Of a stretch of 64,000 bases of DNA, positions 14,645 through 56,591 are shown one piece after another; the stretch's first letter is position 1, and the number at the start of each line of letters is the position of its first letter. This stretch comes from Nemertoderma westbladi (lineage: Eukaryota; Animalia; Xenacoelomorpha), in NCBI GenBank assembly GCA_032718475.1, contig JAUCBJ010000090.1, forward strand, positions 1 through 64,000, read 5' to 3'. Made by a program: the position numbers and the translations under genes. Under the pieces are notes generated by a model. That model saw only the letters and a list, made by a program, of their open reading frames with translations, did not search any database and was not told the DNA's origin.

Positions 14645-17600
14645 CTGGAACCAACGGCCAGTTATTGAACTCATTCGCGTACTGGAACCAACGGCCAGTT
14701 ATTGAACTCATTCGCGTACTGGAACCAACGGCCAGTTATTGAACTCATTCGCGTACTGGAACCAACGGCCAGTTATTGAACTCATTCGCGTACTGGAACC
14801 AACGGCCAGTTATTGAACTCATTCGCGTACTGGAACCAACGGCCAGTTATTGAACTCATTGAGATGCTGGAACCAACGGCCAGTTATTGAACTCATTCGC
14901 GTACTGGAACCAACGGCCAGTTATTGAACTCATTCTGGAACCAACGGCCAGTTATTGAACTCATTGAGATGCTGGAACCAACGGCCAGTTATTGAACTCA
15001 TTCGCGTACTGGAACCAACGGCCAGTTATTGAACTCATTCGCGTACTGGAACCAACGGCCAGTTATTGAACTCATTGAGATGCCGGAACCAACGGCCAGT
15101 TATTGAACTCATTGAGATGCTGGAACCAACGGCCAGTTATTGAACTCATTGAGATGCTGGAACCAACGGCCAGTTATTGAACTCATTCGCGTACTGGAAC
15201 CAACGGCCAGTTATTGAACTCATTCGCGTACTGGAACCAAAGGCCAGTTATTGAACTCATTCGCGTACTGGAACCAACGGCCAGTTATTGAACTCATTGA
15301 GATGCTGGAACCAACGGCCAGTTATTGAACTCATTGAGATGCTGGAACCAACGGCCAGTTATTGAACTCATTCGCGTACTGGAACCAACGGCCAGTTATT
15401 GAACTCATTCGCGTACTGGAACCAACGGCCAGTTATTGAACTCATTCGCGTACTGGAACCAACGGCCAGTTATTGAACTCATTTAGATGCCGGAACCAAC
15501 GGCCAGTTATTGAACTCATTCGCGTACTGGAACCAACGGCCAGTTATTGAACTCATTCGCGTACTGGAACCAACGGCCAGTTATTGAACTCATTCGCGTA
15601 CTGGAACCAACGGCCAGTTATTGAACTCATTGAGATGCCGGAACCAACGGCCAGTTATTGAACTCATTCGCGTACTGGAACCAACGGCCAGTTATTGAAC
15701 TCATTGAGATGCTGGAACCAACGGCCAGTTATTGAACTCATTGAGATGCTGGAACCAACGGCCAGTTATTGAACTCATTGAGATGCTGGAACCAACGGCC
15801 AGTTATTGAACTCATTCGCGTACTGGAACCAACGGCCAGTTATTGAACTCATTCGCGTACTGGAACCAACGGCCAGTTATTGAACTCATTCGCGTACTGG
15901 AACCAACGGCCAGTTATTGAACTCATTGAGATGCTGGAACCAACGGCCAGTTATTGGACTCATTCGCGTACTGGAACCAACGGCCAGTTATTGGACTCAT
16001 TCGCGTACTGGAACCAACGGCCAGTTATTGGACTCATTCGCGTACTGGAACCAACGGCCAGTTATTGAACTCATTCTGGAACCAACGGCCAGTTATTGAA
16101 CTCATTCTGGAACCAACGGCCAGTTATTGAACTCATTCTGGAACCAACGGCCAGTTATTGAACTCATTCGCGTACTGGAACCAACGGCCAGTTATTGAAC
16201 TCATTCTGGAACCAACGGCCAGTTATTGAACTCATTGAGATGCTGGAACCAACGGCCAGTTATTGAACTCATTCGCGTACTGGAACCAACGGCCAGTTAT
16301 TGAACTCATTCGCGTACTGGAACCAACGGCCAGTTATTGAACTTATTGAGATGCCGGAACCAACGGCCAGTTATTGAACTCATTGAGATGCTGGAACCAA
16401 CGGCCAGTTATTGAACTCATTGAGATGCTGGAACCAACGGCCAGTTATTGAACTCATTCGCGTACTGGAACCAACGGCCAGTTATTGAACTCATTCGCGT
16501 ACTGGAACCAACGGCCAGTTATTGAACTCATTCGCGTACTGGAACCAACGGCCAGTTATTGAACTCATTCTGGAACCAACGGCCAGTTATTGAACTCATT
16601 GAGATGCTGGAACCAACGGCCAGTTATTGAACTCATTCGCGTACTGGAACCAACGGCCAGTTATTGAACTCATTCGCGTACTGGAACCAACGGCCAGTTA
16701 TTGAACTCATTGAGATGCCGGAACCAACGGCCAGTTATTGAACTCATTGAGATGCTGGAACCAACGGCCAGTTATTGAACTCATTGAGATGCTGGAACCA
16801 ACGGCCAGTTATTGAACTCATTCGCGTACTGGAACCAACGGCCAGTTATTGAACTCATTCGCGCACTGGAACCAACGGCCAGTTATTGAACTCATTCGCG
16901 TACTGGAACCAACGGCCAGTTATTGAACTCATTGAGATGCTGGAACCAACGGCCAGTTATTGAACTCATTGAGATGCTGGAACCAACGGCCAGTTATTGA
17001 ACTCATTCGCGTACTGGAACCAACGGCCAGTTATTGAACTCATTCGCGTACTGGAACCAACGGCCAGTTATTGAACTCATTCGCGTACTGGAACCAACGG
17101 CCAGTTATTGAACTCATTGAGATGCTGGAACCAACGGCCAGTTATTGAACTCATTGAGATGCTGGAACCAACGGCCAGTTATTGGACTCATTCGCGTACT
17201 GGAACCAACGGCCAGTTATTGGACTCATTCGCGTACTGGAACCAACGGCCAGTTATTGGACTCATTCGCGTACTGGAACCAACGGCCAGTTATTGAACTC
17301 ATTCTGGAACCAACGGCCAGTTATTGAACTCATTCTGGAACCAACGGCCAGTTATTGAACTCATTCTGGAACCAACGGCCAGTTATTGAACTCATTCGCG
17401 TACTGGAACCAACGGCCAGTTATTGAACTCATTCTGGAACCAACGGCCAGTTATTGAACTCATTGAGATGCTGGAACCAACGGCCAGTTATTGAACTCAT
17501 TCGCGTACTGGAACCAACGGCCAGTTATTGAACTCATTCGCGTACTGGAACCAACGGCCAGTTATTGAACTCATTGAGATGCCGGAACCAACGGCCAGTT

Positions 17601-18266
17601 ATTGAACTCATTGAGATGCTGGAACCAACGGCCAGTTATTGAACTCATTGAGATGCTGGAACCAACGGCCAGTTATTGAACTCATTCGCGTACTGGAACC
17701 AACGGCCAGTTATTGAACTCATTCGCGTACTGGAACCAACGGCCAGTTATTGAACTCATTCGCGTACTGGAACCAACGGCCAGTTATTGAACTCATTGAG
17801 ATGCTGGAACCAACGGCCAGTTATTGAACTCATTGAGATGCTGGAACCAACGGCCAGTTATTGAACTCATTCGCGTACTGGAACCAACGGCCAGTTATTG
17901 AACTCATTCGCGTACTGGAACCAACGGCCAGTTATTGAATTCATTCGCGTACTGGAACCAACGGCCAGTTATTGAACTCATTGAGATGCTGGAACCAACA
18001 GCCAGTTATTGAACTCATTGAGATGCTGGAACCAACGGCCAGTTATTGGACTCATTCGCGTACTGGAACCAACGGCCAGTTATTGGACTCATTCGCGTAC
18101 TGGAACCAACGGCCAGCTATTGGACTCATTCGCGTACTGGAACCAACGGCCAGTTATTGAACTCATTCTGGAACCAACGGCCAGTTATTGAACTCATTCT
18201 GGAACCAACGGCCAGTTATTGAACTCATTCTGGAACCAACGGCCAGTTATTGAACTCATTCGCGTA
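14645..18266 (+). repeat. 37-bp minisatellite, about 100 units, with a 31-bp constant core and a variable 6-bp slot; higher-order repeats
   Basis: CTGGAACCAACGGCCAGTTATTGAACTCATT followed by CGCGTA, GAGATG or nothing; the same variant block recurs at 15917, 17145 and 18009. Confidence 0.97.
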
Positions 18267-19726: not shown

Positions 19727-20399
19727 AAGTCGGTGTCTGTGACTGTAGTTGCCGGATATCTACTACTTCTGCGTTCTTGAAGTGTGAATCCCAGATCTTC
19801 AACCATTGTGGCCGTCCTCATTGCGTAATCCAGTACAATTACAAATAGTAATGGTGCTAATGTGTCACCTTGCAGTACGCCAGCCAGGATTGAGAAAAAC
19901 TCAGTTTCACCATCTGGTGAGAGTACCTGCGCTTCTGTGTCACAATATAACAATCCAATGCCAGCAACAATTACTTCTGGTATTCCATAAGCTCTTAGGA
20001 TTTCAAGCATTTTACCTCTATGGATGGAGTCGAATGCCTTCTTGAAGTCCACAAGAGCCATGACTGCGGGGAGATTATTTGACTTAATTCCTTCAATCAG
20101 TCTCCGTAGTTCAAGTATCTGAGCTATTGTTGATCTACTTGGTCGAAATCCGTTTTGGCTCTTACGCAGTAGTTTCTCTATGTGAGGCCTAATCCTATAT
20201 AGAATCATTTTATTGTATATTTTGGCAGCTACCAAAAGCAGACAGATCCCACGATAGTTTGTTGGTATGCTGAGGTCTCCTTTCTTGGGGAGAGGCTTTA
20301 GTTGACCTTTAGTTCAAATTGGTGGTGGATTTTCCCCTTTTAACATCCGGTTGCAAACATTCAATAATGGTCTGTTTAGCACTTCGGTTTTCCATACCT
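19727..20399 (-). mobile_element. RTE family-1 LINE, RT portion (downstream part of a copy split by LTR element A; 3'-truncated)
   Basis: ORF 19693-20235 with VDFKKAFDSIHRG and GVLQGDTLAP, very similar to 6430-7080; reading frame PAEV|WKTEVLN rejoins across the insertion. Confidence 0.9.
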
Positions 20400-21057
20400 T
20401 GTGACGGGATCCTCCGGGTTAGATTTGTACGCGTCACCGTTCTGCTGGGCAGTCGTGCTAGTTCGCTTTGGCAGAAGGCCGTTGGGGAAAACAATAAGGG
20501 TTTCTGTTGTTTCTCAATATCGATAGTCCAAATGATAATAGCACAATCGGTCAATCGGAATGATACATATGTAATAGCAGAAAATACACAGATTAATTGC
20601 TGATGTTAGTGGCGGTGACTGTCATAAACTATGACCGGTCTGCAACTGAGTAACGGAATCAACTGACCGGTAAATCAGTAATGTATGATAATATATGATT
20701 AACACACACGAATATTGATTTTACCTGTTACTGTACTTGGCCCTCTGTACCCAGTGGATTCTCTCCTATCTCTAATAACGTGCTTCCCTCCCCGCTATTT
20801 TCTAATATACTAATTGTCACTTTGACACTCCCCGTGAGTGTTTCCCCCCACTGCTAGCCTCTACTTGCTGTATTCCTTCCGAGGTGGTTTGACCTCTCAC
20901 CTCTCTCTGTGGATTTAGGGCATGTGTCCCCCCCCCCCCCCCAATGTTAGTTGTGAGGCGAGATTAATATTGGTAATCTCGTATCCCCAACTTATTGGTA
21001 AAATGCCACTGGTCCCATTTTCTGGTGGGTAATGAAGTGGAATTGAATCCGCTTACA
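20400..21057 (-). repeat. 3' LTR of element A
   Basis: Plus strand TGTGACGG...GCTTACA, direct repeat of 33186-33853; adjacent CTCCCCC is the PPT on minus. Confidence 0.93.
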
Positions 21058-21589
21058 CTCCCCCATGCTATCTTCCCGGTGAGAAGATAGCCTCAACCTT
21101 AAGTGCGCTTCAATTCCGCTGGAACCCAATCTAATATCGGGCGTGGGGTGGAGTTCTTTTCTCGGGGTTGGCTTTCCAGGCCGCCCCCCCTGGTTATGTT
21201 ATTACTACCCCTCCTTGGTGCAATCGCGAGCTATGTTGCACCAAGGTATCTGGTGTCTCTGTTTGAGATAATTGTGCTCTCTCTTCACACAATTTTCTAG
21301 ATCCTCTCTCTAATCTCACTCTCGGACCCCCATGTCCCTTACTCTCTCTCTCACAGACCTCGTTGTCCCTTACTCTCTCTCTTACTGCTCGCTCCCCACA
21401 CTTGAATTGCACTCCTCTCACTCCCACGCATGTCAACACCTCCTCTCCATACTTCCCCCGTTTCCATTTTCGTTTCCATTCTTCATGCACTTATTGGGTC
21501 CCACACATGTGTGCACCAATCGGTAATGATACAGATGTAATAGCAGAAAATACACAGATTAATTGCTGATGTTAGTGGCAGTGACGTCA

Positions 21590-24500
21590 TCACACATGAT
21601 AACACGTAAGCGTCCATCCGAACGGCGTGAGAATCGCCGTCGGATCCCGCTGCTTATTCTCTCTGAATATGGTCCGTACTCTCTCGTGGGCCGTCGGACA
21701 ATTCATTCCGACTATGATGGATACCTTCGAGACATCCACTTCCGGTATCGGCCTCGTCTGTAACCCTATCTCCTCGGCCACCCAATTCTCCACCAGCGTG
21801 AAGGCTGCTCCACTGTCGACCAGCATCAATGTCGTGATTGATCAGTCGCCCTTTCCTGTTATCCTCACTGGTACTACCCCGAGTAGTACTGTCCTCTTTC
21901 TCCTTGCTCCCGTCGTGCTTGTAGCCATAGTTTGGCCTCCAGTCTCATCAGTCTCGTCGTATTCTATCGGTGTTTCTCTACACTCTCCGAATCTGTGTCC
22001 TTCTACCACGCATCGATGAGATAGTCCGTTTGTATCCGCATAGGCTACCCGATCTTGTTTAGGCAACGCCTGCCAATGCTTACAACTCATGGTCTTATGG
22101 GTTCCATCTCTATGCAATTGACATTTGTAACCTGGATTGTAGCGTTCCTTATATAGCCCTTCACATATCGCATGTAGGTTCATATCTACCAGTTTAGTGT
22201 TTTGGTTATTTGGACTCGGCCTACTGGGTGTGTTGGGATTATATTTGTTCGTGTTGTTATTTTGTTTCTGTTCCTGCCACGGTGTGGCCCTACTCCCAGC
22301 TATCTGTGGACTTGTAGCCCCCTGCATGGCCGCATGTGGTAGCGACTGTCTCACTCTCGGGAATGCATCTGCCGGATTATGTTCAGGTTTAGGCCTGTTG
22401 TATTCAGCTTTCAGCGCCTTCCCCAAACTATCCTCGCTGTAGACTGGGTCTGTAATCAAATCCTCCTCATAGTTAAGGAAGTTCGACATTTCCTCTAGCC
22501 CTGGCTCCGCACCTTTCTTCTCCCGGGTGGAGAAGGCGATCTTCCCCCACTTATTTCTTAGCCAGATCGGCAGTGCCTGCGCTATTGTGGTGATGTTATT
22601 CGATGCATTGAGTTCGTAAGGCGCATCCAAGGTCTTCAGCACAATCAGCGCCTTTTCGACCTTATTCGCGAAATTCCTGATGCTGACAGGGTTATCTTGT
22701 AGGCCACCTGATGTTATTCCCCTCAAGGTTTGCTGGATGATCTTGGCAGGGTGTCCGTATTCCCTGTCTAGGGCCCGCCATGCAGTCATGAATCCACCCT
22801 CGATACCTTGATACTGCCTTACGATATTTTACGCTGGGCCCCCTGTGTAAACTTGTAAATATTTTAGGCACTCCGCCTGCATCAGGTTCTTTGTCAATAT
22901 TTCGTTACTGTATATGCGTCGGAATTGCAGATATTCTTCCAGCCTGCTTCCATCGAATTTGAACGGCTCCACTGGTGGCAGCTCGATCCTGGTCTTAAGT
23001 GCATCGATGAGTGTTGCCATTCCCATCGCCTGTACTTCTAGTGGGTTGGATGGATGCTGTACAGACTCCCATGTTGCTGGGTGCGGTTCGCCCGTCGGGC
23101 CTGTCGACCTCTTCTGCATTGGATATATCATTGGGGGTAACGGTCCCCTCCATATCTCTGTATCGCATGATTTATTTTGGTCCAAGGGGTTCGGGGTTTT
23201 TGTTCTCGGTTGAGTGTATTGCTGATATTGTAATAGGGGAATGTCACCCTGCCCCCCCCCCCCCCCTGCACCGGTGTTATATTTGGTAGTGGGGTTGATG
23301 TTACCATGTTAGGGCCCATACACCTATCGGCAATAGCTCCCCCCTCCCCTGGGTATATCTTATATCCCTGCATATTATAGTCATACTGGTGTGCAGGTAC
23401 GGGTATAGGCCTATCCACTTCTTGCCTACCTACCGGTATATATGCTGCAACTTCCGGATCTAATCCTGATGTCCGCATTACCCTATCGCCTACACTATCT
23501 CTTCCAGCATGGCCTATAGTATGTGCACTAAGGCTTACAGTATGTCCTGCAGTCTGCCTGTGTCCTTCCGGACCGAAGTTTAATCTTCTCGAATATTCCA
23601 AGAAGTCCTCCCCGCAACTACCGTATTCTCGATCGGCAGCTTCGCCTCTCCGGGAAGTTTCTCTTCGATCCCCTCTCCTGTCCTCGTCCTCGCGCCGGTA
23701 CATCCTGTACCCGTCTCCCGGTGTATGGTATATCTCACCAGGCTGCGTCTCTCCGGGGCGACGGCAAACTCCCGGAGTTCGACCTACTGACTCTCTAACT
23801 CCATCTCTACTGCCGACGGTTCACTGTCCATCCTTGCTCTCCGGTTGCTCGTAGCAACGCTTCTTCTATTCTCTTCACTTCTTCTCTCTTCAGTGTAGCG
23901 ATCCCCTTCGTGAGATCTCGCTTCGACCTCCCGGATAAACTCCACTGTTCTTCTTCCATCCTCCGACTGGGCTCGACGTCCTGTCGCTTGCCCGCTCACG
24001 GCGCCAACCTCTCTCTCTCTACCCGGTTGGACGCTCCTGGGGATACTCGCAATCCTCCTACTATTCTCTGTCATCGGGTGCCGCGGTTCACCTAACCCAC
24101 CCTGCGCATTATCCGCCGACGCTTGTGGGACATTCTCTGCCCCCCCCCCCTTCCACCACTAATCTCTCTTGGTGGGGTGCCCGTAGCCCCCCTCCCCCCC
24201 CCCATTCGCCACCTCTTACTTCGCTACCTCTTACTTCACTTCTACGCCCCTCTCTAGTCGACGCACTATCTCCACTCCGGCTGGGTCTACTCACCCTCGC
24301 CTCTCCCTGTGCGACTGCGTGGCCTTGCAGGCTCCAGTTGGGTTGACTCACCCCCGCTACTCCCTGCGTTACTACGTGGCCTTGCAGGCTCCCATTGGCT
24401 TGACTCACCCCCGCTACTCCCTGCGTAACTACGTGGCATTGCAGGCTCCCGTTGGCCGGCCCATCTGCCTCCCCTGTGTCCATATTAATTGCACCGTTAT

Positions 24501-24756: not shown

Positions 24757-24761
24757 ACCCC

Positions 24762-25362
24762 AGTTAGCGTATTCAATTCCGCTAGCCAGCCCCATAAAGC
24801 GAGCTTTAAGCAATATTGGGAACACGAGGTTGATATCCAATATCAACCTCGTATCACCCCAATAAAGTGGGGACAAGAAAACCCCAGAGGACATACGCAC
24901 AACAGGGGTCAGGGGTTACACCCCTGAGAGAGAGAGGGAATAACAGGAGCAACGTGAAACACTCCAGGGAAGGTGAAGGGGCGACAATTAGGTTATTAGC
25001 CAATAGGGGGGAAGCATCGACTGGGTAGAGCAATATGGCCAACCGTGCAATATATTACTGGTCCATGCATTATTTCATTCACTTGTAGTAAGGACAGTTA
25101 GGACTAGTTAGGGCTAGTTAGGACAGTAGCGGAACTCTAGTTACCGTCTCCATCTACCGTCACCAGTACATATCATTTACCGGTACATTATATCATACAT
25201 CAAGCATCTGTGCTATTATCTTTACTATATTGTATTCCGAACCCATATACACTGATCAATCAATAACTCAGAACTACTCTTTATATCTTTTACACACGGC
25301 GGGGACGCGTAAGCTAGAAACCAAAACCGGATAAACCGGGATCCTCCGTAGATCCCGTCACA
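24762..25362 (+). repeat. 5' LTR of element B (terminal TG mutated to AG)
   Basis: AGTTAGCGTATTCAATTCC...GATCCCGTCACA, direct repeat of 31175-31758. Confidence 0.9.
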
Positions 25363-25392
25363 GTAACTAGATCGACTACTGCCTGACTACGA

Positions 25393-28300
25393 GATGAGCC
25401 GAATAGGAGAGACGACACCGCCGCGGACCCCGGATGGCGATCTAACGATCCGCGAGGCCGCGACACGACGGTATAGGCCCACGACACCGGACCCATCGCA
25501 ACGGGTGACCCGGTGATCCAACACGAGGGGAGCCGTCTACAACGAGAAGGGAGAGACGAGTCGAGAGAAGGGAGAGACGAGTCGAAAGAAGGGAGAGATG
25601 AGTCGGGAGGAGAGAGAGACGAGTCGACACACGACGGCGGTCGACGTGCCGATGTCGCCGGCCAGCCACAGGCCGAGGGCGATGGACGGCCCACCGGAAC
25701 GGCGACGGTGGGGCCGCCGGTACGATGCCGGACACGGAGAGAAAGAGGGGATGTCGGCGACGAGGATGTCGGAGTTAGCGACCGGCTCCGACGGGCTTAC
25801 AACGCCACGAGGGAACAGTTGAGGGAAGCTAAGGAGGGAGCAGAACTAGACGAGGTAAAGTTAGAAAAGCGGCTAGGTGAGTCGAACAGATATTTTGCTT
25901 ACCTAGTGCGTTTTGGGCAGCAAGAACTAGCCAGCGAGAGAGCGAGAGGGGTTGCCAGCGAACTGATTGAACTATGGGAGTGTAGGGGTATGCAGCCTAG
26001 TATAGTGTACATAGGGCCATACTTAGTCGATGCCCGGGAATAAAATTAGTGGGTTGGAGGAGACCGCAGGAGGGCGAATCCGAGGTTAGCCCCGAGGATT
26101 CGGTCTCGTCGGTCGGAGGAAGTTCTGGGAGTCGGGGGAAAGTTGGTGGGACGGAGGGGTGACGGGAGTCCGTCGCAACCGATAAGTCTGCTACATCCTC
26201 CGAAAAAGAAAGAAGGGTGCGGGAGATAAATCTGACGTATAAATTAGAAATGGTGGCGACAGAGCAGAAAGAGTTAGAGAGGCGACTGAGGGAGGAAACC
26301 ACATTGTTGGAGACAGAAAGAGAGTGGGCGAGGGAGTATAGAGAGAAAGCCGAGGAGTGTAGAGAGAGAGCCGAGGAGTGTAGAGAGCGGGAGATGAGAG
26401 TAGAGAGCGAGCTGGCAAGGCAGTTTGAGATGATTGCGAGAGAGGCAGAGTTGGCTGAGCAGAGTATACGAGAGAGAGAGATAGAGGGTGAGTGCGTGCG
26501 GGATGATTTGCGTGCCCAGCTAGAGAGGCTTACACAATATCAAGCCAAACTGAATCAGCGCCGACTAGAACTGGCGCGGTTGGAACTATCAGAGAGTGAG
26601 ACCCCACTTACAGACACCGGGCGAGAGAACCAGAACTGGTGTAGCCGTACGGGCGGGGGGTGTAGTAGTAGTACGTTAGGAAATGTTGGTATTAATAGTA
26701 CCGTAGTAGATAACCCTAATCCCTTTATTACAGGAAATATTTTATCCGGTAATTCAAATTCAAATAATAATATTAATTCAAATATTCAGAATAATTCAAA
26801 TAATTCGAATAATAATTTAAATTTTGAAAATAATAACAATTCTAATTTAAATAATTTAAATAATAATCCCGTTTCAAATTCTAATAATTCTAATATTTTA
26901 ATTGATTTTGGGGATTTAATTGATCCAACAGATAATATTGGGAATGGTGCTAAATGGTGCATTAATATGAGCGTGGCGGACGTGCATAGCCCGGCGAATG
27001 GCGGCCTGGTAGACCACGTAGTTAGTAGGCAGGGAGTAGCGGAGTTGAGCCAACCCGAGGTGGGCCTGGTAGGCCACGCAGTAGTAGAGAGAGAGGTGGG
27101 GGTGAATAGACCCAGCCGTAGTAGAGACAGTGCATCGACTAGAGAGGGGTGTAGAAGTGGAGTAAGAGATAGTGAAGTTAGATGTGGCGAGTGGGGGGGG
27201 GGGGGGGCTATGGGCGCCCCACCACAGAAGATTAGTGGCGAGAGAGGGGGGGGGGGGGAGAGAATGCCCCACAAGAGGGGTGTAGAAGTGTTGTAAGAGG
27301 TAGCGAAGTTAGAAGTAACGGGTGGGGGGGGGGGGGCTACGGGCGCCCCACCACGAGAGATTAGTGGCGAGAGGGGGGAGGTAGAGAATGTCCGACAAGA
27401 GGGACGCAGAAGTGTAGTAAGAGATAGTAAAGTTAGGAGTTGCAGGTGGTGGGGGCTACGGGCGCCCCACCACGAGAGATTAGTAGCGAGAAAGGGGGGG
27501 CAGAGAGTGCCCCGCAAGCGTCGATGGACAATGCGCGGGCCGAACTAGGTAAACCGCAACACCCGACGACGGAGAATAGTAGGGGGATGGCGAGTATCCC
27601 CAGGAGTGTCCAGCCAGACAGAGTAGAGTCAGATATTAGCGACGAGAGTGGGCGGAGCGACGAGACGCCGAGCCCAGTCAGAAGAGAAAAGAAGTGAAGA
27701 TAAAAGAAGTGCCGTTGCTAGGAGCAACCGAAGTGCGAGGACGGATAGAGAGCCGTCGATAGTAGAGATGGAGTCAGGGAGACAGTGGGGTCGAACTTCG
27801 GGAGATTGCCGTCGCCCTGGAGAAACGCACCGCACGCCAAGAGAGGGGTACAGGACGTACCGATACAAAGTCGAGAACAGGAGAGGGGATCGAAGAGAAG
27901 CTTCCCGACGGGATATAGCTGCCGATCGAGAGTGCGGTAGTCGCGGGGAGATTCGAGATTCGCGAAGATTAAACTTCGGTTCGAAAGGGCACATGCAGAC
28001 TGCAGGACATACTGTAGGCCTTACTGCACATACTATTATAGGCCATGCTGGGAGAGGTAGAGTAGGCGATAGGGTAGCGCGAACGACGGGATTAAACCCG
28101 GAAGCCGCGGAGTACATACCGGTAGGTAGGCAAGAAGTGGGTAGGCCTATATCGGTACGGCAGCATGACTATAATACACAGGGACATAACATATATCCAG
28201 GGGAGGGGAGAGTTATTGCAGATAGATGTATGGGCCCCAATATATTAACATCAACCCCAGTACCAAACATACCGGTGGGGGGGGGGGGGGGGGACAGGGT

Positions 28301-29410
28301 GACATTCCCCCATCACAATATCAACAATATACCCCAATAGGAGCAAGAACATCGAACCCCTTGGACGAGAACAGGTCGTGCGGACAGTCGCTACCACACG
28401 CGGCCATACAGGGGACTGCTAGTCCACAGTTAGCTGGTAGTAGGGCCACACCGTGGCAGGGACAGAAAGAAAATAACACCACAAATAAACACAATCCCAA
28501 CATACCCAGTAGGCCGAGTACAGACAACCAAAACACAAAATCGGTAGATATAAACCTACGCGCGATACGTGAAGGACTATACAGGAAACGCTATAATCCA
28601 GGATTCGAATGTCAATTACATCGGGACGGAACCCATAAGACCAGGAGTTGTAAGCACTGGCAAGCGTTGCCCAAACAAGATCGTATAGCCTACACAGACG
28701 CAAACGGACTATGTCATCGATGTGTGGTAGAAGGACACAGACCCGGAGAGTGTAGAGAAACAGCAGCTACAAGCACGACAGTGGCAAGAAAGAAGAGAAA
28801 AGTACTACCCGAGGAAGTAACAGTTAGAGAGTGGGCGGGGGAGAATGGATATCCCAGCAAGTATCGGTATGGAGATAGAGAGGAACGGACGGCAAGATGT
28901 CCGGAGGACAAACCGGAGGAGTGTCCGGTGGAGTGTCAGGAGGACAATAGTCCAGAGGAGTGTCCGGAAGAGACGCCGGTCCGGTTGAGAGGCATACCGA
29001 CAAGGGGGAGGTCGAGTAAGAAGACAAGATGGAAAGGGAGAGGATGTGAGAGGATTAGACCAGGGGCAGAGAGGTCCGTGGGTGGACATAACAAAGGACT
29101 CAGGAAAGCAGGAAGCGTGTTGCATACGCACGCGGGACTGACAGAGTGCGAGGGGGCATTACATGGGCAGACGTCGTGTATACCGAAGGACGGACGGGGG
29201 TCGTCGAGGCCTTTAATGCCAGCGCACATACTAAGGGGGAGGCCAGCAGAGGTAGTGTCTAAGAAAGTGTGGCGAAGAGTAAGAGGACGTATAGGAGGGC
29301 AGTGGGAGAGTGCCTACTGGAAGAAAGGGCACCTTAGAGTTTTAGTCGTCCAATGTTTTGGACTGAGGGGGGTGGGAATGAGGGCGAGACGCCCTTCCCA
29401 CGCAAAATAA
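25393..29410 (+). pseudogene. gag: Element B gag (coiled-coil, Asn-rich, zinc knuckles) fused to an integrase C-terminal remnant; disrupted
   Basis: ORFs 25513-26043, 26217-27296, 27648-28340 and 28226-29410 are homologous to A gag; CQLHRDGTHKTRSC and CHRCVVEGHRPGEC; LTECEGALHG...PLMPAHILRGR...WRRV resembles the Pao integrase C-terminus; start position approximate. Confidence 0.8.
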
Positions 29411-29459
29411 TTATTTAATTAAAAATAAAAATAAATAATAAAAATAATTAAATAATAAA

Positions 29460-30960
29460 TAAGTAGAAAGTCAGAAAGTAAGTAGATAGCTAGCTAAGTT
29501 AGAAGAGTTAGAGGGTACGTAGTACCGTTAGTTAGAGAGGTTAGTTAGTTAGTAAGAGGGTACGTAGTACCGTTAGTTAGTAGAGAGAGTTAGAGAAGTT
29601 GGTAAGAGGGTACATAGTACCGTTAGTAGAGAGAGTTAGAGGAGTTAGTAAGAGGGTACGTAGTACCGTTAGTTAGTAGAGAGAGTTAGAGAAGTTAGTG
29701 AGAGGGTACGTAGTACCGTTAGTAGGTAGAAGTTAGGTAGTAAGAGAGTAGTACCGCTAGTTAGATAGAGATATAGTTAGTAAGAGGGTACGTAGTACCG
29801 TTAGTTAGAAAGTTAGTAGAGCAGTAGAGGGTTGTGGGCACCGTAAGCGCCACGTAGAAAGTAGTAGCAGTAGAGGTTGTGGGCACCGTAAGCGCCACGT
29901 AGGAAGTAGTAAGCAGAGTGGTTGTGGGCACCGCAAGCGCCACGTAGTTAGAGTTAGTAGGGGATGCGTTGAACTAAGTGGGGCACGGGCGTGATGACGT
30001 GTTTGATGTAAGAGCAGGGTATGTTAATTAGGGTGGGTGCCGGGCACAAGAGGTGCCGGGCACAAGAAGATTAGTAGTAGAGTTAGTTGAGTTAGTAAGA
30101 GTTAGTAGTAGAGTTAGTTGAGTTAGTAGTAGAGTTAGTTGAGTTAGTAGAGAGTTAGTAGAGTTAGTAAGAGTTAGTAGTAGTTCACATAATTAACGTA
30201 CCCACTCTGCCGGCACTCAGAGCGTCACGTGCAGGCGAGGAGACGTAAAGGGGGTAAGATGTGATAGAGTAGAATAGTAGAGACGGGCACATAGGGTGCC
30301 AGGTAGTAGAGTTAGAGAGTTAGAGGTAGTAGAGTAGTAGAGACGGGCACATAGGGTGCCAGGTAGTAGAGTTAGAGAGTTAGAGGTAGTAGAGTAGTAG
30401 AGAGGGCACATAGGGTGCCAGGTAGTAGAGTAGTAGAGAGGGCACATAGGGTGCCAGGTAGTAGAGTAGTAGAGACGGGCACATAGGGTGCCAGATAGTA
30501 GAGTGGTTGTGGGCACCGCAAGCGCCACGTAGTTAGAAGAGTGGGTAGAGTTAGAGAGTTCTAGTTAAAGGGCTAGAGAGTTGGTAGACTTAGAGGGTTT
30601 TAGTTAGAGTTAGTAGTAGAGGGGTCGTGGGCACCCTAAGCGCCACGTAGTTAGAAGAGTTGGTAAGAGTTAGAGAGAGTTAGTAGAAGTAGAGAGTTAG
30701 TAGGAGTTAGTTAGACTTAGTAGAGCTAGTTAGAGTCGGAGAGTTAGTAGAGAGTAGAGAGTTAGATAGTTAGCAAGTAAGTAGTAGGTAGATAGTATGA
30801 TAGCACAGGGGTAGCATTAGAGATTAGGGCCTTAGGGAGTGGTAGAGAGTAGAGAGGAGTATGGAGAGAAGTTAGAGTGCGATTCAGGTGTGGGGAGAGT
30901 GTAAGAGTGGGGAGAGAGTAGAGGGGAGTTAGAGCGGAGTTAGTTAGAGTGGCGAGAGTG
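29460..30960 (+). repeat. C-poor (AGTT/AGT/AG) low-complexity tract with three repeated short hairpin motifs, in the 3' region of element B
   Basis: GGTAC(G/A)TAGTACC x6, GTGGGCACC(GTAA/GCAA/CTAA)GCGCCAC x5 and GGCACATAGGGTGCC x5 embedded in AGTTAGTAGAG-type sequence. Confidence 0.85.
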
Positions 30961-31174
30961 TTGGGGAAACAAAAATTGTGTGAGAGAAGCGCACGATCGG
31001 CCCGACACGAGACGCCAGAGGGTAGTGACATCATACCCATAGGGAGCGGCCTGGAAAGCCGACTCCAAGAAAATAACTCCACCCCACACCCGATAATAGA
31101 TCGAGTTCCAGCGGAATTGTAGCGCACTTGAGGTGGATGCTATCTTCTCACCGGGAAGATAGCATGGGGGGGAG

Positions 31175-31758
31175 TGTGAGCGTATTCAATTCCGCTACCA
31201 AGCCCCATAAAGTGAGCTTTAAGCAATATTGGGAACACGAGGTTGATATCCAATATCAACCTCGTATCACCCCAATAAAGTGGGGACAAGAGAACCCCAG
31301 AGGACATACGCACAACAGGGGTCAGGGGTTACACCCCTGAGAGAGAGAGGGAATAACAGGAGCAACGGGAAACACTCCAGGGAAGGTGAAGGGGCGACAA
31401 TTAGGTTATTAGCCAAAAGGGGGGAAGCATCGACTGGGTAGATCAATATGGCCAACCGTGCAATATATTACCGGTCCATGCATTATTTCATTCACTTGTA
31501 GTAAGTCAGCTAGTTAGGACAGTAGCGGAACTCTAGTTACCGTCTCCGCCTACAGTCACCAGTACATATCATTTACCAGTACATTATATCATACATCAAG
31601 CATCTGTGCTATTATCTTTACTATATTGTATTCCAAACCCATATACACTGATCAATCAATAACTCAGAACTACTCTTTATATCTTTCACACACGGTGGGG
31701 ACGCGTAAGCTAGAAACCAAAACCGGATAAACCGGGATCCTCCGTAGATCCCGTCACA
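31175..31758 (+). repeat. 3' LTR of element B
   Basis: TGTGAGCG...CCGTCACA, preceded by the PPT and followed by TSD ACCCC. Confidence 0.92.
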
Positions 31759-31763
31759 ACCCC

Positions 31764-33146
31764 CACGTCCGTACGGTTACACCAGTCCTGAGTCTGTCGT
31801 CCGGTTCCTGTAAGTGGGGTATTAACAAACGTTTCCATTACTTCTGGCTCCTCGTAAACACTACCCGAACCAGCCTCACTCTCTGATAATCCCAACTAAT
31901 CCAAAGATAATCCAGTTCTAACCGGCACTTTTGCTTCGCCTGGTATTGAATAAGCCCCCTTAGCCGGGTATGCATATCATCAAGCATACGCTTACACGCT
32001 CTCTCTCTCTCTCTATCCTCTCTCAAACTTTGGTTGGCCAACTCTGCCTCTCTCGCAATCCTCTCAACCCTCCTCGCTTCACGCTCCTTGCGCTCATTCG
32101 CCTCTCGCTCTTTGTGCTCGCTCCTCTCTCTCGCCTCTCGCTCTTTGCGCTCGTTCTTCTCTCTCTCCTCTCGCTCTTTGCCCTCCCTTATTTCTCTCTC
32201 CTCACCCTCCCTAAAGTTTCTCGCCACCCTCTCAGCCCTCTCTTTGCATTCCCTCGCTAACTCTCTCTCTTTCTCTAATAATGCGGTTCCCTCATCCAGT
32301 TGCCTCTCCAACTCCTTCTGATCCAGCGCCACCATGTCTAGTTGACACGCCAGATCTATCTCTAACACCCTTCTTGCTTTTGCGGAGGATGTAGCGGACT
32401 CCCGTCGCCTCCCTGTCCTACTAACTTTCCCCCGCTTTCTGGGGTTCTTGCTAACTGACAACACCGAATCCTCGGGGTTAACCTCGGGTTCGCCATCGTG
32501 CGAGTCCACCCATCCCACTAACTTAATTCCCCTAGCATCCACTAAGTAAGGCCCTACGTACACTACGTCAGGCTCCATTATCCCGGACTGCCACAATTCA
32601 AACATTTCCGTGGCGACCAACCCTCGCTCTCTCACTCGCCAGTTCTCCCTGTCCGAAACGGACCAAATAATGAAAGTGTTTATTCGACTCACCTAGCCTC
32701 TGGTATAGTTTAGGCTGGTATACCTTTCTCCCCTCCTTGGCCTCTTTGAGTAGTTTCTTGGTGGCGTTGTAGGCCCGTTGTAGCCGATCACTGGTCCCGA
32801 CGTCCTCTTCGCCAACTCTACCTTCTCTCCTCGTCCGGCGTTGTACCGGCGGCCCCACCATCGCCGTTCCGGTGGGCCGTCCGTCGGCCTGTGGCTGGCC
32901 GGCGACTTCGGTACTCCGACCGCCGTAGTGCGTCGACTCGTCTCTCCCTCGTGGTTGACGGCCGCCCTCCGCTTGGGCCATCGGATCGTACCTGGTTGGC
33001 AAATCCGGTGTGGTGGGCCGATACTGTGGCATCGCAGCCTCACGGATCGTTTGGTTGGTGTCGTCCGGGGTCCGCGGCGGTGTCCTCTCTCCCTCTGGAT
33101 CTTGGGACTCCTGATCGCTCATCTTCTCTCGCTGTCTTGCAGTCAC
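31764..33146 (-). pseudogene. gag: Element A gag (5' part, coiled-coil), frameshifted
   Basis: ORFs 32598-33146 and 31838-32692 align with B gag (RLQRAYNAT, RFGQ.ELASER, VYVGPYLVDAR, E/R-rich coil). Confidence 0.8.
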
Positions 33147-33185
33147 AGTGTTAGTTGGTCAGTTTATGGCTCGGCAGTTTATGAC

Positions 33186-33853
33186 TGTGACGGTATCCTA
33201 AGATCCCGACCGGGTTAGATTTGTACGCGTCACCATTCTGCTGGGCAGTCATGCTAGTTCGCTTTGGCCGAACGCCCTTGGGGAAAACAATAAGGGTTTC
33301 TGTTGTTTCTCAATATCGATAGTCCAAATGATAATAGCACAATCGGTCAATCGGTAATGATACAGATGTAATAGCAGAAAATACACAGATTAATTGCTGA
33401 TGTTAGTGGCGGTGACAGTCATCAACTATGACCGGTCTGCAACTGAGTAACTGAATCAACTGACCGGTAAATCAGTAATGTAGGATAATATATGATTAAC
33501 GCACACGAATATTGATTTTACCTCTTACTTTACTTGGCCCTCTGTACCCAGTGGATGATCTCCTATCTCTAATCATGTGCTTCCCTCCCCGCTATTGGCT
33601 AATATACTAATTGTCACTTTGGCACTCCCCATGAGTGTTTCCCCCCGCTGCTAGCCTCTACTAGCTGTATTCCTTCCGAGGTGGTTTGACCTCTCACCTC
33701 TCTCTGTGGCTTTAGGGCTTGTGTCCCCCCCCCCCCACAATGTTGGTTATGAGGCGAGATTAATATTGGTAATCTCGTATCCCCAACTTATTGGTAAAAT
33801 GCCACTGATCCCATTTTCTGGTGGGTAATGAAGTGGAATTGAATCCGCTTACA
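33186..33853 (-). repeat. 5' LTR of element A
   Basis: Direct repeat of 20400-21057, followed by TSD TACCT. Confidence 0.93.
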
Positions 33854-34709
33854 TACCTCTGCTGGGATTTCATATAATCCACTCGCTTTATTATTGGACA
33901 TACTTTTAATGCTTCTTTGGAGTTCGGCAGGTGTGAAGTCCCCTGTTTCTATAGGTAGTTTATTTTCATATATTTTCCTTGTAGGGCTGACCTCGATGTT
34001 TGGTGGCTGCCCAAGCAAGTTGCTGAAGTGGTTTTACACTTCCCAACACGTTCTTCAGGACTATGGGCTTTGAGGCGCCCCTTTGCACAACTTTTCCGAC
34101 CAGATACCTCATTTACAGTTTGCCATGTAAGTCTTGATTGTTGCTGTATGTGAGCAGTTGTAATTGCTTCAGTTTTATCCTGTATGTACTTTTCCTGGCT
34201 GATGTTGTAGGCCAATTTAAGATCGTCCTTAGCTTTCTCAACCTTGTTAATGTTTTCAGTTGTTGGTTGTTCGGTTTTAACTTTGTAGGCTATCTTAAGA
34301 TCTTCTCTCTTACAAGTAACCTCAGAGTTTTGCCATGGCACATTCTGTTTTCGTTTGGGTTTCTGGGGGATATGCCTCTTAGATGATTCCTTGTGGGCTG
34401 TTATTATATTCTGGTATATTGAATTGGTGAATTGGTCTTCATCCATTGACTGAAGTGCTTCAAAGCGGTTTTGAACTTCTACTGTATAAGCATCCTTTAG
34501 AGCATTGTCAGTCACTGAGCCTCTCACTGAGTTTCTCCCAGTCATATTTGATTTGCTTGCTTGTCCTTGGTTTGCTGGCTCTCAAACTGAGTCTGATCTC
34601 TGCAGTCACAATTCTGTGGTCCGAACCAATTAGGTTGAACGAGCTGTATGCCTCGCAGTTGATCATGCTGTTTCTCCACTTTTTGTTTATAAGGATGTAA
34701 TCCAGTTGT
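33854..34709 (-). mobile_element. RTE family-1 LINE, upstream part of the copy split by element A (5'-truncated)
   Basis: QLDYILINKKW, SDHRIV, EVQNRFEAL and KASGLYEIPAEV; collinear with ~7100-7876. Confidence 0.9.
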
Positions 34710-38674: not shown

Positions 38675-39650
38675 TGTTCGCGGTATTTCAACTTTTCCTA
38701 ACGCGAGTTGAATATTTTTTGGATTTATTTAAAATGATTATTCCGATATTACTACTGGGTGCGGGAACATGGGTTTTAGGCACACTCGATGGACTGGGGG
38801 CGATTTATGGGCGAATATTGGGGCGCTTACGGGGTACGGGACTCATTTCATGTATATAAGGGCCAGGGGGGGAAGACAAAGTTAAGCAGTATTCAGGTTT
38901 ACCTGATTACTATTAGGCCTAGCCAATTTCCTGCTGCCTGTAGAGGTGGATTTGGTAACTCGCTAGGTCTAAAGGACAAGGACTGCCCTTAGCGGTCCCT
39001 GGCCAACAGCAGTTATTACGAGCCTGAAAAGTACATCGGAAAGTCTGCTGCTTGTGTCAGGGATTTGCGACGGGAAACGACGACAGACCCCGTAGCCAAG
39101 CCGTACTGGTTCTCGATGATCGTTCCCTTCGGGGTTCGTAAGGGGTGGGACGGACACGCGAAAGGGTCGACCGACTAACAGAGGAAGGGTTTGACAAGAC
39201 TGCCCTTAGCGGTCTCTGGTCAACAGCAGTTATTACGAGCCTGAAAAGGACATCGGAAAGTCTGCTGCTTGTGCCAGGGATTTGCGATGGGAACCGACGA
39301 CAGACCCCTTAGCCAAGCCGTACTGGTTCTCGATGATCGTTCCCTTCGGGGTTCGTGAGGGGTGGGACGGATACGCAACGGGGTCGAAAGACAAAGGACT
39401 GGACTCTACTGGCCTACCGACTGTTCGGATCAGTTTCTCGGTTGCCGAAGCGACTATGAGCCTGAATAAGGACTCGGAAAGCCTAGGTGGTTGGGACTCC
39501 ACCGCGATGAACCGACTGACCCCTAGCCAAGCCGTACTGGTTCTGGATGATCGAACCCTTCGGGGTTCGGGAGGGGTGGGACGGACACGCGAACGGGTCC
39601 ACCGACATGACAGACTCCTAGCCAAGCCGTACTGGTTCTCGATGACCGAT
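38675..39650 (+). repeat. 5' LTR of element C; its 3' part and the PBS have been lost by deletion
   Basis: Matches 50248-50999; homology stops abruptly at GATGACCGAT (39650); TATA-like TATATAA at 38853-38859. Confidence 0.85.
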
Positions 39651-39878
39651 GACCTCGATGGAAGTATCGATCACACCCATTGACATAATGCAAGTTGAGC
39701 CAGGAATCTGGCACGTCGAGGTTGAAGTACAAGGAACGAATGTCGGACGATTCAGGATTACCGTTCGAGTAGTCCAAGCTGAGTACGAGAGCTACGAAGA
39801 ACTATTCTACGACATCGCATATCTAGCTATCAACGAGTCGCTAGAATGACAACGAACAACGTCTCCGACACCGATTAG

Positions 39879-42800
39879 ATGGACACCCACACAGACTCAG
39901 AAGCCGACGAGGTACCGAATATCAAGAACATGACCCGTCGACTAGGTGCTCTCAAAGGCGGAGTCACTCGAGCGTATCAGCGTATAGAGAAACAAGTCAA
40001 GAGAGTCGAAACTCCCCTCAACGAGATACAAACTCAGCTTCAGAATATCCGAAGTATCTTACAACGATATGAGAGGATGATACAGGCGTATCAAGAACTC
40101 ATTCCCTCCACCGATCAGGTAAACTACCCCAGGTTAGAAGAACATGTTGTACATCTAGATGAGTTCCGCAAACAACACCGGAGGACCCTCAGCCTTGTGA
40201 GAGGCTACGAAGAACAGTACTACAAGAGAGCTGAAAGAACAGACGCAGAATCGGTGCGAACCTCCAGCACCAGGACAGCAATACATCGAAAGAGAACGGG
40301 GTCCTCTAGGAACCAGCACTCCAGCGCTAGGAGCGCGGTGTCCGGTTCAGCACATAGCTCTCAAGGGGGTCAGCCACTCCGAGACCAGCTACGAGAACAG
40401 AAGGCATTAGCCCTCAAAGCTCGGATGGAAAATGAGTATGTTCAACTGCGTACCGAGCAAGATGTATTAGCAGCCGAAATGCAAAAACGAGAGGCCGAAC
40501 AAGAGGCCGAACGGCAGGTCGAACAACGCGAACAGGAGGCTGAACAGCATAGACGAGACGCCAAACAACGTAAACAGGAGGCTGAAAGGCATAGACGAGA
40601 GGCCGAACGGCAGGCCGAACAACGTGAACGAGAGGCCAAACAACAGGCCGAACAACGTGAACATGAAGCTGAACAACGTAGACGAGAGGCCAAACAAGAG
40701 ATCGTACAACGTAAATGGGAGGCAGAAATGCGTAAACAACACGCCGAGGCCCAAGCGATTCTCATCCACAAAAAGAATGCGGATATTGCGAAACTCGCGG
40801 AATACGAAGCCGCGCTTATAGAACGAGATATTCAAATATACGAGGACTGGGAAAGGGGTATAGACCAGAACTATGAACCAATACCGATACCAGAATTAGA
40901 GAAGTCATTAACGACACCGGCGGTGAAACCTCCGAAACCCGAGTTCCCGCCTACCATACAGTCTACATTATCGGCACAAGCACCGGTATTCCATCCCCCA
41001 CCGGTTACGCTTAAGAATGAGGAACCTTATACCCCCCCCGAGCGTTCCCAAGTACGAGCCTGAAAAGGACTTGGAATGGGTCGCCACTCCCTGCTCCAAC
41101 AACCCGTTTACATCCACACCACAAATCCGTAGCCGAGTCATCATTAAAACACCACCTATCATCGATCCATCGTGTATGGGAGAGAGTGCCAATAACTATA
41201 ACCCTCCTAGTCATTCCGGTTCAGACGACATTGGCATTATCCGGGCATTAGAGAACCGACTGGCCATGCCCAAGATGGAGATCCGCACCTTCGAAGGAGA
41301 TCCCGTCGATTACCTCAGATTCATGAAACGGTTTTTCGCCCAGATTGGGTCAACGGACATAGCTGATGCACAAAAAATAGTATATTTATCCCAATACCTG
41401 GGTGACAAACCACGCCGGATTATCGCATGCTTTGAGGGAGGAGCTCATGAGGCATACTATGACGCATGGAAAACTCTAGATAAAAGATACGGAAATATCG
41501 GGACTATAATTAATAAAACTCTCGAGAAACTGATACAGGACGCGGGATCTCTAGGGGACCCACAGAATATCCAGGAATTCTCAGATTCCATGAAGGATGC
41601 CTACTATACTCTAAAACCATTAAATAAGGAGGAACAAGTAAACAACATTCTAAACCTCCGACAGATCGCCCGAAAGTTCCCCGGATGGCTGCAAAGTAAG
41701 TGGGCCTATAAATGCGTAGATCTCCGGCGTAGACACCCAGATCGAGATCCCAGATTCAAGATCGAGATCGAGATTCCTGGATGATATCTCCGAAGCCATG
41801 AATGACTCGATGTTCTCGAAACAAAGTCTCGCCAAGTTAGACGGATTAGAGAGCAACTCCAGGAGCAAGACGCCCACTCAGAAACCGAGATTCCGTCTCC
41901 TTCCGGTGAGTACAATGGCCATCACCATGGCTGAGGATTCCGACGACGAAGACTACGAGGAACCGACATCAGCCGAGGAATGGGCGTGTTATCTTGCGAA
42001 TTGGGCACCCGAAAGGGAAGGCATCACAAACTCCCTTCTCTGTCTCTTCTGTGGAGAGAAACATAAAGTGGAATTCTGCAGGAAGTTCCAGTTTGCCGAA
42101 CTCGTCCCACGCTTCGAGGCGATCATGAAACACCGAGGATGCTTCCGGTGTCTTGGAACAGGTCACTATGTTCGGGATTGCGACCAAAGATCGTGCTGTA
42201 CGGTTTGTAATGACCTATGTCATCACACACTCCTCCACATCCCCGCGAACTTTGACTTCACCACCCTCCCATTTCGGATTGAAGCCAAACGAAGAGGAGA
42301 AACGAACCACGTTTCTAAAGGAACCCGGACGACCCAACGGAGAGAAACCAACCCGTTTAAAACCTCCACCGATGCATCACAAGTGACAAATATCTCAGCC
42401 ACGATCAACCTTATAAATCGCCGTTACATGGTCTTCACCAAAGTAATCCCAGTTAGAATTCAAGGGGTCGGGAAATCATTGACAACGCTCGCATTCCTTG
42501 ATAACGGGTCGGACGGAACCATCATCGACCGAGATTTCCTCGAGCAACTCGGCCTAGATTATGAACCTTGCAAACGGCCCATACAAACGATCACCGACCA
42601 CAGAGAAGTAGAATCCGGGGAGGTGCAGCTCCAGATGGAAGGAGTAATGAAGGGCTACGAGACGGTTAAGCTGACAATCAAGAACGCCTTGGTACACACC
42701 GATCTCCGAGTGCGGTTCCGACAATCAGCCGAATACGCCCCTCTCATACAGTTAGACCGGGAAGATGTAGACCTAAGGTGCCTGCCGTTGGACGTAAACC

Positions 42801-46523: not shown

Positions 46524-46794
46524 ACCCTTCTCATCCTGTTGACAAACTCCTGATGAAAATGGACCCCCCTTAAACCAACTGTAACCACGCAATGGTATTT
46601 GTGTTTCCTTGTGTGCTATGTGGAGTCCAGCGTCACCCTGCAGATGTTTCGACTGACGCAGGGTCGTTTATGTATTGTTTACCCTGATTTTGGTCATCGG
46701 GACCAACGATATTGGATTATTGGAAATGGTAAAGATTTGAAGTGGAATTCATTGTATCCATTGTAGTATGTTATGTTGTCAGTTGCGTGCGCAG

Positions 46795-53460: not shown

Positions 53461-53671
53461 AAATATATGTCAACAAAGCAGATTCCTCACACAAAGGAAC
53501 AGCTGGTAGATTTTGTCATTCCAACTCTGAGTTTTTTTACAGACACGTAGTTGTACAATTATATGCCTTTTAGAGTATTTAGCGCATTGTGCAAATGACT
53601 TATTTTGTCCGCAAAAGCTTTTACAAAGCGCTTGAACTATATGTACTAATGATAAACGTTCTATACGAGTG

Positions 53672-56346: not shown

Positions 56347-56591
56347 TTATATCCAAGGCGTATCGTACGTCCTTAATAATTTAGTGCGTAGTGCGAACGT
56401 AATACATGTGCGCATTTGTTATTCGCTAATACGTGCTATCTAACATGTTAACTACTGTATATAGCATTTTACATTTAGTAGGCCTACTATAATATACATA
56501 CAGTATACACAGTAAATTATATTACGGTAGTAATTTATCTGCCTCATTTCAATAATAATGTATCTTATCACTTAAAAGCAAAACAGATATT

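Follow-up and report, generated by a model that had tools for sequence, protein, structure and literature searches.

The window, the whole stretch of 64,000 nucleotides that was analysed, contains two nested BEL/Pao-derived elements. Element A spans positions 33853-20400 on the minus strand, is flanked by a 5-bp target-site duplication (TSD) and is interrupted by element B (24762-31758, plus strand). The features of A, all on the minus strand, are the following:

33186..33853, minus: 5′ LTR, 668 nt; TSD at 33858-33854
33458..33492, minus: TATA-like motif (from 33492) and Inr-like motif (33463-33458); predicted start near 33461
33418..33427, minus: predicted self-primer end in the 5′ LTR, this copy having one mismatch to the primer-binding site (PBS)
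33176..33185, minus: PBS, flush with the LTR end
31759..33175, minus: 5′ part of the internal region (gag N-terminal remnant), cut by the insertion of B
21597..23011, minus: gag (DUF1759, zinc knuckles) and protease remnant, with two in-frame stops and without reverse transcriptase (RT)
21517..21592, minus: internal copy of an LTR segment, matching 33424-33348, at the point of pol loss
21058..21064, minus: polypurine tract (PPT); 3′-side TSD at 20399-20395
20400..21057, minus: 3′ LTR, 95% to the 5′ LTR, with the perfect oligo at 20630-20621

Those of B, all on the plus strand, are:

24757..24761 (second copy 31759-31763), plus: 5-bp TSD, within A
24762..25362, plus: 5′ LTR, 601 nt, with a 17-nt duplication missing from the 3′ LTR
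25051..25084, plus: TATA-like (25051-25057) and Inr-like (25079-25084) motifs; predicted start near 25081
25115..25144, plus: predicted self-primer end, comprising the core 9-mer 25136-25144 and the upstream arm of a 26-bp duplex
25145..25151, plus: bases right after the predicted cut, with predicted pairing to U5 at 25301-25307
25363..25389, plus: PBS and extended pairing arm, the core (25363-25371) flush with the LTR end
25390..31165, plus: internal region of tandem repeats and broken gag remnants, without RT, RNase H or integrase
31166..31174, plus: PPT
31175..31758, plus: 3′ LTR, 97% to the 5′ LTR, with a copy of the oligo at 31532-31540

The TATA-like and Inr-like motifs of B were assigned by the general consensus of either motif. 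The 5′ edge of the internal LTR-segment copy in A coincides with the oligo, which is the LTR stretch complementary to the PBS.

The BEL/Pao origin proposed in the sequence-only reading was upheld. The Gag of A matches DUF1759 weakly in the domain scan (E 0.005, below the cut-off), all 11 protein matches longer than 1600 aa, and one of 1423 aa, are BEL/Pao polyproteins, and Peptidase_A17 and DUF1759 are present in each of the 12 long matches scanned. LTRs, PPT and TSD of both elements are those of BEL/Pao, and their proteins are BEL-type, not those of Ty3/gypsy chromoviruses. No tblastn match to RT, RNase H or integrase was obtained in A or B; the two are non-autonomous BEL/Pao derivatives and not complete members.

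Neither element carries the 18-nt PBS complementary to a tRNA 3′ end of the ICTV definition, and TGG is absent from the first 40 nt past the LTR end in both, as had been noticed before for the TGG-type tRNA PBS. Instead, GTAACTAGA (25363-25371), directly following the 5′ LTR of B, is the reverse complement of 25136-25144 and of 31532-31540, that is, of a site in either LTR. In A, GTCATAAACT (33185-33176) directly follows the 5′ LTR; it is the perfect complement of 20630-20621 in the 3′ LTR and pairs with 33427-33418 in the 5′ LTR with one mismatch. All these coordinates, first given in the sequence-only reading, were confirmed, and so was its claim of covariation: A and B differ at 5 of the 9 paired positions, all five differences are compensated so that Watson-Crick pairing is kept, and cross-pairing between A and B amounts to just 5 nt. 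By sequence, either PBS is complementary to RNA derived from its own LTR and adjoins U5, as in Tf1-type elements.

Pairing is better than chance in both elements, as had been estimated. With PBS offsets of 0-5 allowed, shuffled PBS sequences reached the observed run in 1/300 (B) and 2/300 (A, 3′ LTR) cases; a separate shuffle test gave 4/200 for B and 0/200 for A. The pairing also extends beyond the 9-10 nt described earlier. In B, 9 bp, a 3-nt bulge and 17 bp form a 26-bp duplex of -37 kcal/mol, a strength equalled in 0/100 shuffles; with the 3′ LTR of A, 10 bp are followed by a 3-nt bulge and 4 bp and more (3/100 shuffles), while the duplex with the 5′ LTR of A is by itself not significant (16/100). 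At the mismatch site of that LTR, the pairing base accounts for 52-71% of contig depth among the variants listed (three runs, two studies). Over the PBS of B, contig depth falls to 655 versus approximately 81,000 and 71,000 in the flanks (run X1), a collapse that is expected if the PBS varies by family; contig depth does not equal copy number, and the length of the Logan contigs does not suffice for phasing the oligo with the PBS.

Further elements were found as BEL contaminant contigs in six bacterial assemblies. In 14 of the 15 non-TGG elements among them, the PBS forms at least 11 contiguous pairs (11-15) with a predicted GT-AG exon junction inside the element's own LTR, compared with 9 contiguous pairs in B, and for each of the 14 such pairing was reached by 0-1 of 300 shuffles; the fifteenth, L020, has 10/11 pairs (11/300 shuffles). 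None of the six TGG-PBS elements exceeds 7 pairs to an own-LTR junction. Among 272 cross-comparisons, 11 pairs were reached only by 4, between elements sharing an 11-mer. Across 15 elements with distinct sites, 161/165 cells are Watson-Crick and all four pair types occur at 8/11 positions, a count in which pairs were picked by best score, so that the shuffle nulls carry the weight. Between L005 and L013, the upstream exon's half of the pairing shows two differences, each matched by a compensating change. In A and B, no base separates the LTR from the PBS arm, which begins 0-5 nt past the LTR in the relatives; the six TGG controls have their PBS at 0-4 nt. AATAAA or ATTAAA follows 0-33 nt past the predicted cut in 9/12 relatives, and this poly(A) signal would define a short R. 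The two LTRs of L005 are 100% identical, intron included. The 11-bp junction pairing is known from these distant relatives, not from the family of A and B itself. Introns were also sought in the latter: in B, no junction reaches 10 pairs or more, and the one 11-pair junction in the 3′ LTR of A was rejected, since its acceptor has no pyrimidine tract and 10 pairs form even without splicing.

As to the scored set, it was on inspection of L017 and L012 that the criteria were widened to PBS offsets of at most 5 and to one additional donor motif. Of 18 loci scanned automatically at offsets 0-1, 2 came out as candidates; L077 escaped the scan, was spotted by eye and then scored. Elements with LTR or PBS missing or not found were left out (L004, L007, L010, L011, L016, L018, L019, L021-L024, L064, L066, L067, L071, L076, L080, L081, L083, L084, L086 and L087). 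L057 repeats L009; L060 and L062 (L061 family) stand outside the scored set, as do L065, L079 and L085 (the same as L072), which have TGG-type motifs upstream of gag.

In the trees, a single change divides the self-pairing elements from those with TGG (support 84 and 88), a moderate support obtained on an element sample enriched by the query. The Gag-protease of A groups on the self-pairing side, and the AU test rejects its placement with the TGG group (p 1e-4); its Gag, on a long branch beside a third element of the window, C, shares no more than about 26% identity with the elements tested. In C, no complement was found at 39641-39760; its PBS is lost and its 5′ LTR end apparently so. A homology search with longer proteins as target gave no matches, no BEL protein was confirmed in viral contigs, and the LTR-end pattern had zero matches in viral contigs and two chance bacterial matches in metagenomes. 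Family-wide searches matched 1/63 and 4/251 genomes and yielded no new testable element.

From these data, Tf1-like self-priming from the element's own RNA, splice-assembled in the relatives and intron-free in A and B, is the reading that we favour, at a probability of roughly 0.6. To the observed anatomy, complementarity, compensation and clade distribution it would add a transcription start, an RNA fold formed in vivo, an RNA cut, the priming step, splicing and mobilisation in trans. With its capped 5′ portion (predicted approximately 45 nt), the transcript would fold onto the PBS as a helix of 9-10 bp, a 3-nt bulge and further pairs. The RNA would then be cleaved immediately downstream of the oligo by RNase H from the RT of an autonomous partner, and minus-strand DNA would start from the freed RNA 3′ end and run through U5 and R. 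The distant relatives would need the host to splice out the LTR intron before this helix, there 11 bp long, could form; A and B represent the intron-free form. The upstream transcription start, suspected earlier to be an obstacle, is none, because Tf1 likewise needs an internal RNase H cut (PMC7175516). Self-priming, as first proposed, is supported as a reading, and none of the findings named beforehand as refuting it turned up in the tests that were run; its origin within a small lineage is not, since a wide BEL branch has the trait. The broader scenario, for which we see even odds, is that a broad animal BEL/Pao branch swapped the tRNA primer for its own RNA. In most members the spliceosome would join two LTR exons into the primer, the PBS would be a copy of the exon junction, and the unspliced 3′ LTR copy would be unable to compete; A and B would descend from such elements by loss of the intron.

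Predicted folds bear on this in different ways. In both A and B, the primer helix is predicted to stack on a second helix formed by the post-cut bases with U5. Predicted helix probability is 0.43-0.61 in the 5′ LTR of A; in B, lengthening the folded sequence on the upstream side lowers it from 0.87 to 0.02, and a mean of at least 0.57 is predicted in only 6/14 spliced leaders of relatives. Whole-leader folds of A and B do not exceed those of shuffles in stability (z -1.2 and -0.9).

It is unlikely that the pairing is structural or regulatory, serving for example to mask the 5′ poly(A) signal or to control packaging, while priming falls to something else, such as a tRNA fragment, a protein or a small RNA of the host. 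The 26-bp duplex of B exceeds what a primer needs, the B oligo has an alternative predicted pairing with U5, and fungal GalEa copia elements without a PBS have an unexplained hairpin instead (PMC5445492); yet the duplex covers exactly the bases a primer must, and one host RNA cannot match fifteen different sites. The PBS of A and B match tRNAs over just 6-7 nt, which is chance level (76 surrogate tRNA calls from other organisms; a weak test, with 1/6 TGG controls matching cleanly).

Improbable, too, is an element-derived primer supplied in trans and not from the 5′ end of the same molecule, be it a short capped, polyadenylated (in the relatives, spliced) transcript from any LTR, solo LTRs included, or the 3′ LTR copy carried by the genomic RNA. 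Such a primer would explain why the relatives keep the intron in both LTRs, as in L005, despite the need for a spliced primer, and would fit the poly(A) signals close behind the cut site, the plentiful LTR-end contigs in host runs and the better pairing of the 3′ than of the 5′ LTR of A. However, the stacking predicted for A and B is a cis arrangement, and Tf1 works in cis (PMC7175516). Chance complementarity, or a functionless leftover inverted duplication, is very improbable: albeit a single 9-mer match has a probability of about 0.2-2% and the 5′ LTR of A alone is not significant, the pairing recurs with different letters in 17 elements, is own-LTR-specific in each and is found in none of the TGG elements; own-LTR junction scoring with shuffle nulls largely refutes this reading.

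Self-priming from own RNA was not found for BEL/Pao in the literature searched; the ICTV profile describes replication of Belpaoviridae as poorly understood and tRNA-primed (PMC8742986). If true, BEL/Pao would be the third LTR superfamily with self-priming, after gypsy (Tf1/Sushi/Tcn1) and copia (TAR), and a splice-built primer would couple reverse transcription to host splicing. The elements would be freed from tRNA supply and, possibly, from tRNA-fragment silencing, and their escape from PBS finders would be explained. Both the RNA cut and the splice junction are predicted at exact positions that can now be tested.

Among known systems, Tf1/Tf2 of S. pombe, Tj1 of S. japonicus and the Tf1/Sushi and Tcn1 groups have a PBS complementary to their own LTR-derived RNA over about 11 bp, the self-primer of Tf1-type elements being made by an RNase H cut (PMC7175516, PMC4600332, PMC6317226). 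A and B resemble this Ty3/gypsy group in such complementarity and differ from it in their BEL/Pao Gag and protease, in a bulged and extended duplex and in an oligo that, judged from promoter-like motifs, would lie approximately 45 nt inside the transcript instead of at nt 1-11; in their relatives, moreover, the primer end spans a predicted splice junction. Outside the Tf1 group, self-priming has been predicted from sequence for the TAR lineage of Ty1/copia (Houba, Osr-1); unlike A and B, these are plant copia elements, and the consulted part of the article makes no mention of a splicing requirement (PMC6317226). With Belpaoviridae (Semotivirus), A and B share the DUF1759 Gag, zinc knuckles, protease motif, TG..CA LTRs, PPT and 5-bp TSD, whereas the 18-nt PBS complementary to tRNA-Arg or tRNA-Gly (PMC8742986), RT, RNase H and integrase are missing from them. 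Like the fungal GalEa copia elements, they have a structure at the PBS position in place of a tRNA PBS; the GalEa site is conserved and without an LTR complement, whereas the site of the A and B type is variable and LTR-complementary (PMC5445492).

Elements A and B are non-autonomous BEL/Pao derivatives, so called because RT, RNase H and integrase, which were looked for in both, were found in neither, and because the Gag of A matches BEL-type proteins. Gag and protease of A are retained but broken; the coding content of B consists of gag remnants only. The DUF1759 match of A's Gag lies below cut-off. With this Gag as query, 321 proteins were retrieved at E up to 0.001; among the 18 scanned, all 12 longer than 1400 aa contain Peptidase_A17 and DUF1759, and 11 of them also DUF5641. 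According to self-comparison of the window and flank inspection, B is inserted into A in opposed orientation. Each element has a 5-bp TSD. The two LTRs of one element are 97% (B) and 95% (A) identical, and those of A and B share ~71% of aligned bases. These and other features of the window are as follows.

33853-33186 and 21057-20400, minus strand: LTRs of A (self-comparison, flank inspection)
24762-25362 and 31175-31758, plus strand, opposite to A: LTRs of B (same methods)
19727-20382 and 33927-34709: LINE-type RT fragment, insertion target of A
6432-7876: paralogous LINE-type RT copy, uninterrupted
10385-12891: inverted repeat of RT-coding sequence, ~990 nt long, 91%
14645-18266: tandem array, 37 bp x 100 copies
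53664-54919: tandem array, 23 bp x 54 copies
56153-56346: MITE-like palindrome
56559-57323: ORF adjoining the palindrome; cysteine-rich, transmembrane, proline-rich
38676-51150: element C, near-complete BEL/Pao with frameshifts and repeat-rich LTRs, 5' LTR end lost; nearest relative of A's Gag-protease in the Gag-protease tree
47735-49579: extra 614-aa ORF of C past the integrase, no match in Pfam or PDB
57700-64000: element D, broken BEL/Pao pol, protease split from RT by unrelated sequence
59741-60574, minus strand: 277-aa ORF in D, within this unrelated sequence

The PBS directly following the 5' LTR of either element is complementary to an oligo of 9-10 nt inside the LTR, and this complementarity is a real, compensated and clade-wide feature. 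The positions assigned to oligo and complement by the sequence-only reading were confirmed by inspection, as was the lack of a TGG-initiated PBS, no TGG occurring within 40 nt of the LTR end in A or B. The match had been held to exceed chance, and shuffled PBS sequences equal it in 1/300 cases for B and 2/300 for the 3' LTR of A; the 5' LTR of A by itself, with its mismatch, does not reach significance (16/100 shuffles). The pairing itself stood, and its length had been underestimated: the predicted duplex comprises 26 bp at -37 kcal/mol in B (equalled by 0/100 shuffles) and 10 bp, a 3-nt bulge, and 4 bp and more in A (3/100 shuffles), the bulge past the first helix being common to both. From oligo end to LTR end, the distance is 218 nt in B and 221 and 232 nt in A. 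The proposed covariation also holds, since five of nine pairs are unlike between A and B and all five are compensated. In host-species contigs from three sequencing runs (X1-X3, two studies), the pairing base accounts for 52-71% of depth at A's mismatched position, and B's letter for about 86-97% at the base following the oligo. Depth over the B PBS bin is ~hundredfold under either flank, which is consistent with a family-specific PBS; Logan depth does not equal copy number. Matches of both PBS to tRNAs are at chance level in a surrogate set from other organisms, a weak test.

Close relatives of A and B with DNA were not found among protein homologues, viral contigs and metagenomes. Scanning a BEL alignment against prokaryote assemblies gave 22 loci, which would stem from animal hosts whose DNA was sorted into the assemblies of their symbionts; searches in those assemblies added more. 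Several GTDB representative genomes (L003-L024, G001-G010) carry animal BEL/Pao elements that are intact, as well as tRNA genes arrayed in tandem, most likely as host contamination; in G010 these sit within the main contig.

Readable LTR and adjacent PBS were the inclusion rule for the 21 relatives scored. Six have a TGG 0-4 nt past the LTR, with a best self-match of at most 7 nt. The remaining 15, from six assemblies, lack it, and their unspliced LTR-PBS match is 6-9 nt. Against a predicted exon junction (a consensus-like GT donor joined to a pyrimidine-rich AG acceptor of the same LTR), the PBS forms 11-15 contiguous pairs in 14 of these 15 (0-1/300 shuffles each), PBS offsets up to 5 and one extra donor motif having been admitted after the data were seen, and L077, missed by the automated scan, having been included after detection by eye. 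The exception, L020, has 10 of 11 pairs (11/300 shuffles). Predicted introns measure 76-1022 nt in 12 relatives. Only 4/272 cross-comparisons reach 11 pairs, each between elements with an identical 11-mer. Between L005 and L013, the upstream-exon side is unlike at two positions, 338 and 451 nt away from the acceptor; each change is compensated in the PBS. By fold prediction, the helix is well populated in 6/14 spliced leaders and in no unspliced one. In L012, an ORF of ~250 codons lies directly after the PBS, before gag; in L023 (6850-7300), whose 5' end is missing, the 3' LTR has the same donor/acceptor context as L078.

Trees were calculated for RT-RNase H-integrase (36 rows, quick search) and Gag-protease (35 rows), both without outgroup. 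In each, the split between self-pairing and TGG elements is a single change, which may have run in either direction (support 84 and 88; 0/500 shuffles), in a sample whose self-pairing branch was enriched by the query. Within the self-pairing part, A is joined to element C (support 90, on long branches). Its placement with the TGG set is rejected by the AU test (p 1e-4). The suggestion that self-priming evolved within the A/B lineage itself needs widening, as self-pairing extends to a broad group of BEL elements. As a guess from host range (PMC6238403, PMC8556966), the subclade may be the Suzu or Sailor group.

A primer derived from the element itself, in cis or in trans, is the favored reading, at a probability of roughly three in four. 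By analogy with Tf1, the most likely mechanism starts with annealing of the element's own RNA to the PBS; a partner RT would supply the RNase H that nicks this RNA where the helix ends, and the nicked RNA would then be extended by RT through U5 and R. The poly(A) signal found 0-33 nt past the predicted cut in 9/12 relatives fits a short R. In retroviruses, plus-strand synthesis copies the primer; if this applied here, the PBS would be rewritten from the primer every cycle, which would explain the exact junction complements. Since neither LTR of the relatives has lost its intron, either splicing would be restricted to the 5' LTR copy or a short spliced LTR transcript would prime in trans. The sequence fits both alike; action in cis is considered the probable course, and priming in trans rather unlikely. 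A weak hint that the template ended near the predicted cut comes from A's internal LTR fragment (21592-21517), which starts at most 7 nt from it.

When the start of the A and B leaders is set ~50 nt upstream, the oligo:PBS helix is predicted to stack on a second helix of post-oligo bases with U5, with a hairpin near the LTR end. Predicted helix probability for A is 0.99 with the 3' LTR sequence and 0.43-0.61 with the 5' LTR; for B it is 0.87, 0.37 and 0.02 when the leader includes 45, 60 and 80 nt upstream, a rival pairing of the B oligo being with U5. TATA-like motifs lie 75 nt (A) and 94 nt (B 5' LTR, a 17-nt duplication counted) upstream of the oligo end, followed after ~30 nt by what we take, by eye, to be Inr-like motifs. 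From these promoter-like motifs, a self-primer of ~45 nt would be predicted for both elements.

The ICTV profile describes priming of Belpaoviridae by tRNA-Arg/Gly (PMC8742986). The titles and abstract openings searched contained no report of BEL/Pao self-priming; prior notice may exist in subscription journals, Repbase or GyDB. A term search found no mention of the PBS in the accessible portions of PMC554778, PMC3118150, PMC6238403, PMC8556966 and PMC2774666, and those of PMC8220671, PMC3601003, PMC5445492 and PMC7472051 held nothing on BEL self-priming. Self-priming has been described in the Tf1/Sushi/Tcn1 groups, and TAR copia elements are predicted to use it (PMC6317226, PMC4600332). In Tf1, pairing involves the first 11 bases, and the cut falls between bases 11 and 12 (PMC7175516). 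A known type of mechanism, self-priming, would now be found, as a variant, in a family so far regarded as using tRNA primers.
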